NCBI GenBank assembly: GCA_045611685.1
Contig: JAZKXO010000003.1
Span: 20,767 to 84,766 of the forward strand
Reading direction: 5' to 3'
Source: Eubacteriales bacterium
GTDB taxonomy: Bacteria; Bacillota; Clostridia; Oscillospirales; CAG-272
Length of the DNA: 64,000 nucleotides
Shown: positions 11,599 to 57,555 of the stretch, in pieces
How positions within the stretch are numbered: the first letter of the stretch is position 1
Layout of the letters: each line of letters opens with the position of its first letter
Position numbers and translations under genes: made by a program
The notes under the pieces: model-generated
What the model saw: only the letters and a program-made list of their open reading frames with translations
What the model was told of the DNA's origin: nothing
Database searches by the model: none

Positions 11599-11714
11599 AT
11601 CGACCTCTCCTTTCGTAGTATACCTATATTATAACAAATAATCGCGTTCGTGAAAAGAGCATGCAATAAAAAAGATATTTTGCGTTTTATGTTTTGAGCC
11701 CGAATGATGAAAAA

Positions 11715-11736
11715 ATGCGGCCTCGAAAAGCCGCAT
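11715..11736 (-). terminator. Intrinsic terminator (possibly the original tRNA-Ser terminator)
   Basis: ATGCGGC/GCCGCAT stem followed by a T-run on the minus strand. Confidence 0.6.
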
Positions 11737-11785
11737 ACATATAGGATTTTATGATAAAAACACCATTGAGTCCGAACTTATGGGT

Positions 11786-12307
11786 TCAGATTTCAATGGT
11801 GTCTTCAATTTCGTATTTATCATCAATAAGAATATAGTTCACACTATATAACTGTGCAAGTTTTAAGATTTCGGCATTGTCTACCAGCACACTCTCGATA
11901 GTACACCCCTCATCATCTAAGCGACTTTCAATTACATTTGCATATTCTTTTATGTCAGCAAAGTGGTTTCTAATATAACCCTCACTCATTACAAGGCAGT
12001 AATATTTAATCTCTTTAAGATATTCTCCTTCAAAGTCCTTCTGCCAATCGAACGGAATGTAGCAACCTTCAACAACTAAGTTCTGCCTGTTTTCAATTGC
12101 AGTTTTAATCATTTCGCGAACAATAGGCCATAAGTATGCAGTCAAATCTTTATCATCGCTCATAGGAGTAAGTTCCGTGTTGCCGCTGCGGATTAAACCC
12201 ATTTTCAAATGGTCAATGGACAAGTACGGATATTTATATTTTTCAAGCAGTTTTTGTGCGGTTGCTGTCTTGCCCGTGTGCGATGCACCTGTAATTAAAA
12301 CAATCAT
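11786..12307 (-). CDS. P-loop kinase/AAA-like protein (AT-rich passenger gene)
   Basis: GASHTGKT Walker A, SIDHLKMGLIRS, VVEG; clearly lower GC than flanks. Confidence 0.8.
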   Translation of the reverse strand: MIVLITGASHTGKTATAQKLLEKYKYPYLSIDHLKMGLIRSGNTELTPMSDDKDLTAYLWPIVREMIKTAIENRQNLVVEGCYIPFDWQKDFEGEYLKEIKYYCLVMSEGYIRNHFADIKEYANVIESRLDDEGCTIESVLVDNAEILKLAQLYSVNYILIDDKYEIEDTIEI

Positions 12308-12396
12308 TATCTTCGTCCCTACAAAATTTTATTTGTAGGTTAGATTATACCATAGATTATATTTATAATCAACGCTTAGCGTAGCAAAGCACCTAA

Positions 12397-12477
12397 ACTT
12401 CTTCACTATTCACTATTACTTATTACTTGCCAAAATCGACTTCTCAGAGAATAGTGAAAAGTGAAGAGGTGAAAAGT
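12397..12477. repeat. Degenerate 7-nt tandem repeats arranged as an inverted pair
   Basis: TTCACTA TTCACTA TTACTTA TTACTTG ... GAATAGT GAAAAGT GAAGAGGT GAAAAGT; 12400-12417 vs 12450-12467 complementary at 17/18. Confidence 0.8.
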
Positions 12478-12513
12478 AAAATCGACAAGTTTCTGTCAAA
12501 ACTTGTCGATTTT
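12478..12513 (-). terminator. 15-bp perfect hairpin abutting the tRNA-Ser CCA end
   Basis: AAAATCGACAAGTTT-ctgtca-AAACTTGTCGATTTT. Confidence 0.7.
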
Positions 12514-12601
12514 GGCGGAGGGTGTGGGATTCGAACCCACGTGGGATTGCTCCCAAACGGTTTTCAAGACCGCCTCGTTATGACCGCTTCGATAACCCTC
12601 C
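12513..12601 (-). tRNA. tRNA-Ser(UGA)
   Basis: GGAGGGT...GCGGT-CTTGAAA-ACCGT, long variable arm, GGTTCGAATCC, encoded CCA. Confidence 0.96.
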
Positions 12602-55031: not shown

Positions 55032-56207
55032 TTACAGAAGTGCCTTTTTCATTTCATCGGCAAGGTCGCGCTTTTCCCACGGGAGACCGAGCTCTTCGCG
55101 TCCCATATGACCGTAGGCAGCCACCTGCTTGTAGATGGGGCGGCGGAGATCGAATTTCTGAATAATTGCCGCGGGGCGAAGATCGACGTGCTTGGTAACG
55201 TAGGCGGAGATTTGCTCCTCGGCGATCTTTGCCGTGCCGAACGTGTCAACGAGCACGGATACGGGGTGAGCTACGCCGATCGCGTAGGCAAGCTGGACCT
55301 CGCATTTGTCGGCGAGGCCGGCGGCAACAATGTTTTTCGCAATATAGCGCGCCATGTAGGAGGCGGAGCGGTCTACCTTCGTCGGATCTTTGCCGGAGAA
55401 AGCGCCGCCGCCGTGACGGGAATAGCCGCCGTAGGTGTCTACGATAATTTTTCGTCCGGTAAGGCCGCTGTCGCCGTGCGGGCCGCCGATAACGAAACGG
55501 CCGGTGGGGTTCACGTGGATGATCGTCTTATCGTCAATCATAGAAGGATCGACGATCGGCGTGATGACGTGTTCGATGACATCCTTGCGGATATCTTCAA
55601 GCGCTACGTCAGGGTCGTGTTGAGAAGACACGACGATCGTGTCGATGCGAACGGGCTTTCCGTCTTCGTATTCCACGGTAACCTGCGTCTTTCCGTCCGG
55701 ACGGAGATAGGGAAGCGTGCCGTTCTTTCTGACAGCAGTCAGCTGAATGGCAAGCTTATGTGCGGTCGAGATCGGATAGGGCATAAGCTCCGGCGTCTCA
55801 TTGCAGGCGTAGCCGAACATAAGGCCCTGGTCGCCGGCACCGATATCAAACGGATCGGTATCGCCGTTCTTGGCTTCGAGGGATTTGTCAACGCCGAGAG
55901 CGATGTCTGCGGACTGCTCATGAATGGAGTTCAGGACAGCGCACGTATCGCAGTCAAAGCCATATTTCGCGCGGTCGTAGCCGATTTCGCGGACGGTCTC
56001 ACGGACGATACTTTGGATATCGACGTATCCGGCGGTCGTGATCTCGCCGAGGACCATGACGAGGCCCGTCGTGCACGTAGTCTCACACGCAACGCGAGAC
56101 ATAGGGTCTTGGCGCAGCATTTCGTCGAGGATCGCATCGGAGATCTGATCGCAGATCTTGTCGGGATGTCCCTCGGTTACGGATTCGGAAGTGAAAAACT
56201 GTCTCAT
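55032..56207 (-). CDS. metK: S-adenosylmethionine synthetase
   Basis: [28 protein letters not shown]. Confidence 0.98.
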
Positions 56208-56281
56208 AGTGTTCCTTTCTCTGACGGATAAAAAATTGCCCCGGACAGAGTCCGAGGCAAATCAACCGTTTGCTTATCGAC

Positions 56282-56372
56282 TCTTATCTATCGGGAATTA
56301 GCACCTTGCCGACTTTTATCGGTAGGTTGCCGGGCTTCATGGGGCCTGTCCCTCCGCCACTCTTGATAAGAT
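56282..56372 (-). promoter_or_regulatory. SAM-I (S-box) riboswitch; terminator at about 56230-56260
   Basis: CTTATCAAGAGTGGCGGAGGGACAGGCCC-ATGAAGCCCGGCAACC...GGTGCTAATTCC...AGATAAG. Confidence 0.95.
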
Positions 56373-56448
56373 TCATTTTTTACACAGTAGAGTATAGCAC
56401 ATCTTCGCGTAAATTGCAATAGGAAGTAGAAAAAAAGACGAAAAAACA

Positions 56449-56473
56449 GAGGCGACGATGAAATCGCCGCCTC
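56449..56473 (-). terminator. Terminator of the 57082-57555 gene, now separated from it by an insertion
   Basis: GAGGCG.CGAT-GAA-ATCG.CGCCTC followed by a T-run on the minus strand. Confidence 0.7.
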
Positions 56474-56487
56474 GACTTTTACGCCAA

Positions 56488-57082
56488 ATCCCAATTCCCT
56501 TTTGTGTTCCCATAAACCACAAGGGGAAATGGACGATAAATTGGAATTTTACGAATTCTTCAATATCTGATATTCTATGAATTTTGCCACACCATCTGCA
56601 TCATTAGCAATACCAACCAAATCATCGGAAAGAATCGTTTCATAATCCTCAATTGGAAGATTAGAATATGCACAATCTCCTGTTTCAAGAGTAATTCGTA
56701 GATTTGGATAGCGTTTCAACTCATTCAATAAATACGCAGCACTTCTTAAGCATATACCATAATCTGTTCGTTGGTTTCTGTAAATAATTCTTGCTCCATT
56801 GGAAACAACCATTGCATCAAAATCAATCAAATCACAATATTGTTTTGTGGTGCGAAATGGTCTGGCAGTAGCAACCATAATTTTGATTCCACATTTTTAA
56901 CATTCATTAAGGACTTTAATAGTATATGCAGATAGGGTTTTATCTGTATGTAGCAATGTTCTATCTAAATCTACAATGATGGCCTTAATATTTACAGTTT
57001 TTTGCATTGCCGTTACCCCTATCCAAATCCTTGTTTATCGAACACATTATCATAGTCCGGGAACATAAAGTCGAATTGGGAC
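56488..57082. mobile_element. Non-autonomous mobile insertion cassette (595 bp)
   Basis: 24-bp TIRs 56488-56511 and 57059-57082 (19/24 identical), 8-bp direct repeat TACGCCAA at 56480-56487 and 57083-57090, AT-rich interior, no transposase. Confidence 0.85.
56549..57007 (-). pseudogene. Cof-type HAD hydrolase pseudogene
   Basis: MQKTVNIKAIIVDLDRTLL...NEC*KCGIKIMVATARP...SNGA...; in-frame TAA; motifs III/IV missing before NDADGVAKFIE. Confidence 0.85.
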
Positions 57083-57555
57083 TACGCCAAAAAGGATAAA
57101 AAGGACAAAAAACCGTAGGAGATTCCGCTCATAATGAACGCTGCGATGATGACACCTGCGAAAATTGAGGGGAGGGAATACTTCATACGCATGTTTAGAA
57201 GCGCGGCGGCAAGAGCGCCCGTCCACGCACCTGTTCCGGGAAGCGGAATACCGACGAAAAGCATAAGACCGAACGAGGCGTATTTCATCACCTTCACCGT
57301 GTTCTTTTTTCCTTTTTCCTCTACCCACAGTGCAATTTTTGAAAAGGCTTTCGTTGTTTTCATCCAAGCGAGAATATGGCGGATGAAAAGGAGAATAAAC
57401 GGCACGGGAACCATGTTTCCAATAACGCTGACTGAGAAATTGGCGAGCCATGGAAGCCCCAACGCCGCACCGATCGGGATCGCGCCACGCAACTCTATGA
57501 GAGGCACCATGGAACAGAAAAAGACGTATAAGTAATGCTCAATTTGCTCTAACAT
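57082..57555 (-). CDS. Small multi-drug export-like membrane protein (COG2426-like)
   Basis: PLIELRGAIP, GNMVPVPFI, FVGIPLPGTGAWTG. Confidence 0.85.
   Translation of the reverse strand: MLEQIEHYLYVFFCSMVPLIELRGAIPIGAALGLPWLANFSVSVIGNMVPVPFILLFIRHILAWMKTTKAFSKIALWVEEKGKKNTVKVMKYASFGLMLFVGIPLPGTGAWTGALAAALLNMRMKYSLPSIFAGVIIAAFIMSGISYGFLSFLSFLA

Follow-up and report, generated by a model that had tools for sequence, protein, structure and literature searches.

Mobile insertion cassettes (MICs) are described as pairs of inverted repeats without a transposase that enclose one or more coding sequences (PMC6199540). The described examples include MIC231 of the Bacillus cereus group, the variants of which combine common ends and a conserved left-hand region with different passengers and are moved in trans by the insertion sequence (IS) IS231, and the Tn3-derived MICs of Xanthomonas (PMC6199540, PMC4337579, PMC4133298). 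As for integrons, complete ones are reported as absent from the Firmicutes genomes surveyed by Cury et al. in 2016 (PMC4889954). Here we analyze an AT-rich islet in a 64,000-nucleotide stretch of DNA from an Eubacteriales bacterium (assembly GCA_045611685.1, contig JAZKXO010000003.1, positions 20,767 to 84,766), the whole of which we call the window. The islet contains an open reading frame (ORF) of the HAD family, and an earlier note on this DNA, made from its letters alone, had proposed that here and at a second islet beside a tRNA-Ser gene ORFs are loaded behind a resident promoter through recombination at inverted 15-bp sites. The observation behind that proposal is confirmed as real and beyond chance, its main support being comparative. 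The cassette idea is also largely right, but the promoter moves with the cassette and the copy in the window came by transposition. We consider it likely, with a probability of roughly 0.8, that the HAD islet is a transposable gene cassette of the MIC kind that is not autonomous and has two layers, one nested in the other.

The islet has a GC content of 0.32-0.35, against about 0.52-0.57 around it. A segment of 1.6 kb around it was searched against 41 related genomes; this and all further comparisons rest on metagenome-assembled genomes (MAGs) and contigs. In the closest relative, G009, both flanks are adjacent to each other, at 97% and 95% identity, and the islet is absent; it is likewise absent from the three other members of the genus that keep the flanks together (G008, G005 and G003). 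The empty site in G009 reads ...CCTTCTTGGCGTAAAAGTCGAGG... (uninterrupted core ...CTTGGCGTAAAAGTCGAGG...), and the corresponding junction in the window reads ...TTTGGCGTA / 594 bp / TTTGGCGTA AAAGTCGAGG.... Alignment of this junction with G009 sets the limits of the element at 56489..57082 (minus strand), comprising the left end, the passenger and the right end, and reveals an 8-9-bp target duplication. The left copy, TTTGGCGTA, lies at 57083..57091 and the right copy at 56480..56488 (both minus strand); the left one contains the end of the upstream host gene, the stop codon of which is TAG (57084-57082) in the window and TAA in the empty site. A discrete 594-bp unit was thus inserted here, and the unit that entered, as the duplication and the empty site in G009 show, is the whole element with its outer inverted repeats rather than the ORF between the two sites, as the earlier note had supposed.

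Both ends of the element are about 58 bp long and are inverted versions of one plan, consisting of an outer block, a spacer and an inner block. The outer block has the form TCCCAATT-(5 nt)-T(T/A)TGTTCCC, so that the outer 23-bp repeat runs TCCCAATT..TGTGTTCCC; the same signature can also be written as CCAATT-N7-GTGTTCCC, inverted at the other end. The outer left terminal inverted repeat (TIR) of the window element, G-TCCCAATTCGACTTTATGTTCCC, is at 57059..57082 (minus strand) and the outer right one, TCCCAATTCCCTTTTGTGTTCCC when read inward, at 56489..56511 (plus strand), as established by comparison of the ends. The spacer is 18-23 nt long and in the left end holds GATAAT, which forms part of a promoter-like site (TCGACT, 17 nt, GATAAT; 9/12 consensus) at 57046..57074 (minus strand). 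The -10 box that had been taken for a resident promoter consequently lies within the left end of the mobile unit and is moved along with it. The inner block, CGATAAAT-nnn-AATTTG, is here named L in the left and R in the right end. On the minus strand, GATAAT (57051-57046) is followed after 7 nt by ATAAACAAGGATTTG (57038-57024), an AGGGG ribosome-binding site and the ATG at 57007; the L site proper, CGATAAACAAGGATTTG (57024..57040, minus strand), contains this 15-mer. Its inverted counterpart, ATAAATTGGAATTTT (plus strand, 56536-56550), overlaps the stop codon TAA (56551-56549) and corresponds to the R site, AAATTCCAATTTATCG (56534..56549, minus strand), which abuts or overlaps the TAA of the passenger; in consensus form R reads CAAATT-CCA-ATTTATCG at the passenger stop codon. 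The tRNA-Ser islet shows TATAAT, 7 nt, ACAAATAAAATTTTG (12336-12322), a ribosome-binding site and an ATG at 12307, and all three of these sites are indeed where the earlier note had placed them. The pattern AYAAA-N6-TTTG said to unite them has 6 matches in the window against 1.18 +/- 1.17 expected, a count reached by none of 100 shuffles, but the inverted copy at 56536 does not fit it; because of this misfit, and because two of the six matches are a single palindromic place read on both strands, the statistic is weak alone.

Paired ends of this kind, 300-930 bp apart, were found in other genomes of the genus and the family, at 16 loci of a collection of 185,579 species and at one additional locus from metagenomes. 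By their record titles the 16 loci belong to uncultured Clostridia, Oscillospiraceae, 'Eubacteriales' or Ca. Flemingiibacterium MAGs, and those that name a host come from animal guts. Between L and R, each of these related cassettes has one ribosome-binding site and one ORF, oriented alike in all of them, and the identity of the ORF varies. The same ends enclose at least 10 different single passengers, none of them with a transposase domain detectable with Pfam: they include a P-loop kinase-like protein of 171 aa (3 or more different locations, 2 or more genera), GNAT acetyltransferases (164 and 180 aa; at least 3 more, partial, lie at contig ends), a 253-aa hydrolase of the metallo-beta-lactamase fold (MBL), two proteins to which Pfam assigns no family (one of 261 aa, the other secreted and of 170 aa), small membrane proteins (58-102 aa) and one membrane protein of the HXXEE family. 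In agreement with the earlier note, the two 15-bp sites are conserved and inverted and lie around a variable single-gene passenger. The kinase-like protein is the most widespread passenger (L224 in G023; L229 in G026, which is of another family; L212 in G011; and 11786-12307 of the window). Its Pfam matches are weak (AAA_33, CPT, Zeta_toxin-like), and its homologues are annotated as 'adenylate kinase' on Clostridium butyricum megaplasmids. The plasmid collection, searched for cassette ends, yielded only such passenger homologues, from Clostridium butyricum and Paraclostridium, and a scan of metagenomes with the right-end pattern gave 2 loci only, one of which (L078) is a chance match.

The ends of these cassettes fall into frame subtypes A and B, in which both spacers differ while the outer and inner blocks are kept, with the left and right ends co-varying. 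Each of the two frames carries at least 5 different passengers, if ends at contig edges are counted. The copies of the target duplication agree at 9/9 bases in the window element (WIN), L015, L017 and L067, at 8/9 in L018, L057, L066 and L069 and at 7/9 in L014 and L062. In 6 of 14 elements the left terminus lies no more than 15 nt from the end of a long co-oriented ORF (in 3 more the flank is too short to judge), and a terminator-like hairpin lies 3' of the cassette in 9 of the 14; hence, insertion between a stop codon and a terminator is recurrent. In WIN, L018, L059 and L062 the R site TAAATTCC itself provides the TAA stop.

The outer repeats are shared with a family of MITEs (miniature inverted-repeat transposable elements). 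These siblings are non-coding, 71-250 bp long and have the outer repeats only, around GC-rich palindromic interiors, and are flanked by AT-rich duplications. In 14 genomes of the genus the outer-repeat pattern has 93 matches against 3 for the reversed control, and exact matches occur in 25 of 301 genomes of the family, amounting to 14 of its 97 genera, against 2 control matches. An 'empty frame', with L abutting R within outer repeats, was not seen among the short elements fetched. Viral contigs contain more than 119 single matches to the outer repeat; no inverted pair was present at the 80 loci with flanks, and we regard them as chance matches. A further element with the same outer repeats, L021 (G009:C3:17300-18838), is 1541 bp long, has an 8/9 duplication and encloses the genes of an extracytoplasmic function (ECF) sigma factor and a zf-HC2 anti-sigma factor; here, therefore, a regulatory pair moves as transposon cargo. 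As to the window element, classification as a MITE fails, the element being 594 bp long, coding and single-copy in its own genome (G000).

The inner sites have a far wider distribution. The R 16-mer AAATTCCAATTTATCG, allowing at most 1 mismatch, is matched 75 times and its reversed control not once; the matches lie in 28 of the 61 related genomes of the order that were scanned and reach 8 of its 24 other families; with up to 2 mismatches there are 107 matches against 5 in the genus. In the genome to which the window belongs, about 10 of 15 L/R matches show a common layout, namely a -10-like box, 5-8 nt, L, a ribosome-binding site, ATG...stop, R and a terminator, and do so without outer repeats. 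The units in question enclose a chrA-like gene pair, three small ORFs (contig C79), an SDR gene (C84) and a GrpB-like gene (C130). The first of these (G000:C123:58645-59857 and the end of C56) consists of two half-genes that by eye belong to the chromate transporter family, and lies directly behind a second tRNA-Ser gene, in the same tRNA neighbourhood as the tRNA-Ser islet of the window. In 20 regions fetched from other genera and families, the layout is seen at 17 of 21 matches, with 1 unclear and 3 chance-like; two of the 17 are L sites that match the reported order of TATAAT, 7-8 nt, site, ribosome-binding site and ATG. Thus, the bracket recurs before ribosome-binding sites and at the stops of small accessory genes in many genomes, an enrichment on which the earlier note had made its proposal depend. 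In 6 of the 20 fetched regions the contig breaks off on the passenger side, no further than about 450 nt from the site.

Some of these units stand in recognizable frames without TIRs. In one of them, frame D, a strong promoter (TTGAAA-17-TGaTATACT) precedes L by about 23 nt; it recurs with other spacings in G006, G012, G004 and G008, and in G003:C3 it forms a tandem array of two units, the one clear array of the sort the earlier note had anticipated. At the tandem junctions, an imperfect inverted pair around 50-165 bp is made up of the R of one unit and the L of the unit behind it, in view of which the absence of attC structure, part of the inference in the earlier note, may not hold; R itself has the internal palindrome CAAATT-CC-AATTTG. 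Further conserved sequences after R, ..GGTGCAAATTTGGTGCAACACTTTA.. in L224, L233 and L235 (G023, G049 and G021) and ..AAAAGGGTTTTAGNTTNTCCTAACAAGTGA.. in L227 and L229 (G015 and G026), mark more types of carrier frame in other genera and families.

Five comparisons place the start or the end of homology between carriers at, or within, L or R. First, L059 from a goat-gut MAG and the metagenome contig L077 share their right end and 220 nt of flank (283 nt, 93.6%) and have unrelated passengers, the similarity beginning at TAAATTCCAATTTATCG and the sequences differing from R inward. Second, at the locus shared by G000:C79 and G009:C10, which is in frame D, the flanks are 95-96% identical and the interval from L+14 nt to R-4 nt holds different DNA, of 981 and 1850 bp respectively. 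Third, the cassette L069 (frame B, G013) shares 231 nt at 97% identity with G009:C10 (frame D): the common module is the same 62-aa ORF, which is the first passenger of the G009 array, and near-identity runs from GAATTTG in the inner arm of L to ..CCAATTT within R, with unrelated sequence outside. Fourth, the alignment of the kinase cassette L015 (frame A) with G011:C85 (frame C, its ends decayed) starts at the first base of L and stops 10 nt short of R. In the fifth, between L015 and the tRNA-Ser islet of the window, the alignment begins inside L. Hence, one passenger can be found in more than one carrier and one carrier or locus can contain more than one passenger, with the breakpoints at or inside the sites, as the cassette idea had predicted.

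The last of these comparisons also accounts for the second islet of the window. The tRNA-Ser islet (11808..12334, minus strand) comprises the inner part of L, a ribosome-binding site and most of a P-loop kinase ORF of 173 codons (11786..12307, minus strand), and is 80% identical to the TIR-bounded cassette L015 over 527 nt of DNA. The alignment begins inside the third site, which is a diverged L (12322..12336, minus strand), and stops 14 nt before the stop codon of the cassette ORF. The islet has neither outer repeats nor an R site, in keeping with the remark that it lacks a clear downstream copy, and G009 has a different segment of 948 bp in its place. It is, as read from this homology, an older, decayed kinase cassette, and for this reason the same layout was seen twice: the two islets are indeed related. 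The neighbouring tRNA-Ser(tga) is at 12513-12601. Between it and the kinase remnant lies a palindromic repeat of about 85 bp (12396-12481; arms CTTCACTATTCACTATT / AATAGTGAAAAGTGAAG), pieces of which occur at 80-84% identity elsewhere in many genomes of the genus, and which is probably another small MITE-like element. A second repeat (11685-11807), found also in G005:C19, G003:C71, G013:C44 and G012:C84, lies directly 3' of the kinase homology and gives the islet ORF its last codons and its terminator; the 3' end of the kinase gene is therefore a junction.

The passenger of the window element (56549..57007, minus strand; 153 codons) is a pseudogene of a Cof-type HAD protein (PF08282 Hydrolase_3, Pfam E 2e-17), which corrects the earlier reading of it as an ORF. 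It has an in-frame TAA at codon 37 (56899-56897), and matches the profile only from position 1 to 111 of 255, after which comes a short C-terminal tail, on which grounds a full-length open Cof-type HAD gene was rejected. Contigs of 4 runs from 4 studies (by label pig gut, gut and manure metagenomes) were compared with it. Those of 2 runs (a 2.37-kb contig) have about 305 extra bases at 56599-56608, and those of 3 runs have a T at position 56899, so that codon 37 is AAA and not TAA. These differences indicate that the passenger was until recently a full-length Cof-type HAD phosphatase, and that the window copy is decaying through a nonsense mutation and an internal deletion of about 305 bp. The filled site is present in the contigs of all 4 runs and a joint across the empty site in none, a result silent on excision, as contigs cannot reveal rare forms.

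In the reading that we prefer, a transposable cassette of the MIC kind, the outer layer would be the carrier, i.e. the inverted ends of about 58 bp, the outer 23 bp of which are common with the short MITE family. A transposase supplied in trans would have moved the 594-bp unit by cut and paste into an AT-rich target of 8-9 bp that lay between a host gene's stop codon and terminator, the target being duplicated as TTTGGCGTA. The inner layer would be a passenger slot bounded by L, behind the -10-like box and before the ribosome-binding site, and by R at the stop codon. The carrier would then contribute the -10-like box, and the host read-through transcription and a terminator. The passenger would be exchangeable, with the same L..R module being carried in the TIR frames A and B, the TIR-less frames C and D and tRNA-adjacent islets. 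That modules and carriers recur in different combinations, with breakpoints at the sites, is an observation in its own right; as for its origin, we think that recombination at L and R, whether site-directed or through short homology, is likelier than the capture of passengers afresh each time. The window element has the features by which a MIC is recognized: terminal inverted repeats, a passenger coding sequence without a transposase, and a target duplication with a matching empty site.

Several points weigh against this reading. Promoter-like matches in the islet are at background level (5 found against 2.9 +/- 1.3 in shuffled sequence). Its own genome holds a single TIR-bounded copy and no MITEs. 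In the L069/G009:C10 comparison the breakpoints are asymmetric within the sites and one of them is a secondary junction, at which the right side of G009:C10 resembles an R/L fusion at 5 bp of AATTT microhomology; moreover, that breakpoints fall at the edge of a conserved block is to some extent expected by construction. The MITE siblings carry neither L nor R, which are therefore dispensable for transposition, and the function of L and R is left unexplained by a reading in terms of a transposon. Finally, neither an autonomous element nor a transposase with the cassette repeats was found. No transposase lies beside any repeat, including inward of 8 orphan repeats, and in MITE-rich MAGs there was one match to PF00872 (10 MAGs scanned), with different ends, one to PF01609 and none to PF06782, PF12762 or PF01610; this absence is weak as evidence, since fragmented MAGs lose repeats. 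One contig, G012:C32 (L075, L076), encodes an IS256-family transposase together with a DDE_Tnp_1 gene. Its IS256-like ends (AAAATTTTGTGTAAAsCAT) have only the core TTTTGTGT in common with the cassette repeats. Together with the 8-9-bp duplication, this core makes an IS256/Mutator-type enzyme a lead for the transposase, no more.

An alternative that we regard as tentative is that a dedicated recombinase acts on L and R to load, excise or swap ORF cassettes, the TIR element being just one vehicle. This would agree with the conservation of the sites, base by base, across families while the adjoining spacers diverge (both between frames A and B and order-wide), with a near-identity that runs from the inner arm of L to a point inside R and leaves hybrid sites, and with a hot-spot locus 3' of a conserved gene whose content differs among close relatives, along with the two-unit array. 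The passengers are also ORF-tight, with the four cases of a site-supplied stop mentioned above, and the internal palindrome of R and the contig ends on the passenger side of sites (6/20 regions) would likewise fit. However, no such enzyme could be linked to the sites. The genome of the window has 21 tyrosine and 6 serine recombinase matches, none of them at cassette loci except on contig C84; there is none at the C79, C123 or window loci, in agreement with the remark of the earlier note that the recombinase is not in this window; the co-occurring recombinase that it had named as possible support was not found. The contig G000:C84 (L243), 2259 bp in length, has a tandem pair of tyrosine recombinase genes and, after it, a terminator, a strong promoter (TTGAAA-17-TGATATAAT), an exact L and an SDR gene; homologous pairs are present in no fewer than 8 related genomes, where the genes downstream vary. 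L or R sites adjoin only 2 of 9 homologues of this tyrosine recombinase, which also counts against the cassette reading, and we rejected it as a consistent partner. Furthermore, given the inverted orientation of L and R, a simple recombination event between the two would flip the passenger instead of excising it. The asymmetry of the breakpoints within the sites does not favour a dedicated enzyme either, and no circular or excised form was seen, the contigs of the 4 runs having no such joints.

Possible to about the same degree, and in our view doubtful, is that L and R are the inner halves of bipartite transposon ends, as subterminal binding sites of the transposase or as inside ends of a minimal composite transposon, and that the passengers differ because the conserved frames, after gene transfer, act as portable arms for ordinary recombination, either homologous or by microhomology. 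L and R do lie inverted at a fixed distance from the outer repeats, with left and right subtypes co-varying, R has a TCCAATT core like that of the outer terminus TCCCAATT, frames of 60-100 bp recur with different passengers, and the fusion at AATTT in G009:C10 has the look of microhomology. Against this stand the multi-copy MITEs, in which outer repeats suffice for movement, and the distribution of L and R, which is order-wide and contrasts with the restriction of the outer repeats to 25 of 301 genomes of the family. In addition, frames unrelated to each other contain the same L..R module, and between these no more than 16-22 bp of homology would be available.

That L and R are a regulatory operator carried along with accessory genes, which the earlier note had kept as its fallback, appears improbable. 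In many units L lies behind a -10 box, by 5-8 nt in frames A-C and by about 23 nt in frame D, at the likely start of transcription or just past it, and is conserved in sequence beyond position alone; the motifs ATTTATCGAAC and TTTGTCGAAC also resemble, at 6/7 bases in most copies, the '0A box' of Spo0A (TGTCGAA). An operator would nonetheless leave unexplained the inverted copy after the stop codon, the breakpoints at the sites and their location in transposon ends. Still far less probable is that L and R act through structure, by pairing in a 5'-3' panhandle of the transcript or in single-stranded DNA. The consensus L and R are complementary at 14/16 positions and a transcript would start near L and end just past R, but the L of WIN has C and G changes missing from its R, variants are uncompensated, the L (CGGAAAAT.., CGATAAAACTG..) and R (..TTTGTCG, ..CAACTTGTCG) of frame D vary independently, and the region has no Rfam match other than a SAM riboswitch. 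Chance similarity of AT-rich promoter-proximal sequence, suggested by the short and degenerate pattern of the earlier note and by the background level of promoter-like matches in the islet, is refuted for practical purposes by the 75 versus 0 and 107 versus 5 controls, the layout at 17 of 21 matches and the conservation of the ends around different passengers.

Returning to the transposable cassette, its placement in the window is between two housekeeping transcription units. Upstream and co-oriented is a gene of the small multidrug export protein family (PF06695 in Pfam; 57082..57555, minus strand). The strong intrinsic terminator of the host (56449..56473, minus strand; an 11-bp stem and a T run), which in G009 comes directly after that gene, is now 3' of the cassette. 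Directly 3' of this borrowed terminator is an S-adenosylmethionine (SAM) riboswitch (56281..56372, minus strand; Rfam, 74 bits), the only family found in an Rfam gathering scan of 56100-57300, followed by metK (55032..56207, minus strand); both are ordinary in themselves.

In organization the cassette resembles a natural expression vector, with the -10 box and ribosome-binding site apparently furnished by the frame, the stop often by R and the terminator borrowed from the host. Its repertoire of GNATs, an MBL hydrolase, a kinase and small membrane proteins is akin to the content of integron cassettes, and its inner sites, order-wide, mark the edges of modules common to unrelated carriers. One might speculate, at odds clearly below even, that a cassette system distinct from integrons exists in gut Clostridia of this order, in which ORF-tight modules bounded by L and R, a quasi-palindromic pair of conserved 16-17-bp sites, are moved among expression carriers by a recombination activity. 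The carriers would be of three kinds, TIR frames that can transpose, chromosomal frames of promoter and terminator in hot-spot arrays, and islets beside tRNA genes, and the HAD islet of the window would be one loaded carrier. If a dedicated activity does act at L and R, it would explain the shuffling of small accessory genes in Firmicutes and would amount to gene-cassette exchange in a phylum where the 2016 survey found no complete integrons. On the practical side, such units break metagenome assemblies and can be mistaken for ordinary intergenic promoters.

Our literature search returned no account of such cassettes in Clostridia. To our knowledge, MICs are known from few bacterial groups only, and a MIC family can now be placed in uncultured Clostridia of animal guts. 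It shares with the described MICs the transposase-less inverted repeats around a passenger coding sequence, the variety of passengers and a conserved region by the left repeat. It differs from them in that no cognate IS was found for it, its ends are bipartite (outer repeat plus L or R), the passenger is a single ORF with the -10 box and ribosome-binding site coming from the frame, insertion is often between a stop codon and a terminator, and the inner sites also flank genes outside transposon ends, across the whole order. The likeness to MITEs lies in the siblings with the same outer 23-bp repeats, 8-9-bp AT-rich duplications and several copies per genome in the genus; the window element differs in its 594 bp, with a gene and expression signals. 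Composite transposons such as Tn5 and Tn10, with their outside and inside ends, and the Pack-MULEs of plants similarly have a passenger between inverted end-modules that each comprise an outer and an inner end, and an 8-9-bp target duplication is typical of the IS256/Mutator type; in contrast to the former systems, the end-modules here are only about 58 bp long and without a transposase, and the passengers are whole ORFs and not fragments.

The comparison with integrons is the one that bears on the inner layer. As in integron cassettes, the passengers are ORF-tight and promoter-dependent, and many are small enzymes such as GNATs or proteins without a known function; inverted core-like sequences stand on either side of the ORF, the stop is often in the site and a variable array occupies a fixed locus. 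Tandem arrangement, expected of an integron or of a cluster of attC sites lacking an integron-integrase (CALIN), is clear in G003:C3 only, with longer and different content in G009 at the C79 locus. An adjoining IntI-type tyrosine recombinase, the other mark of an integron, is missing at the C79, C123 and window loci, and the C84 enzyme is no exception, given the distribution of its homologues. The units thus differ from integron cassettes in having no IntI-type integrase next to them, in sites conserved in sequence and not in structure only, and in a promoter-side site of their own for each unit.

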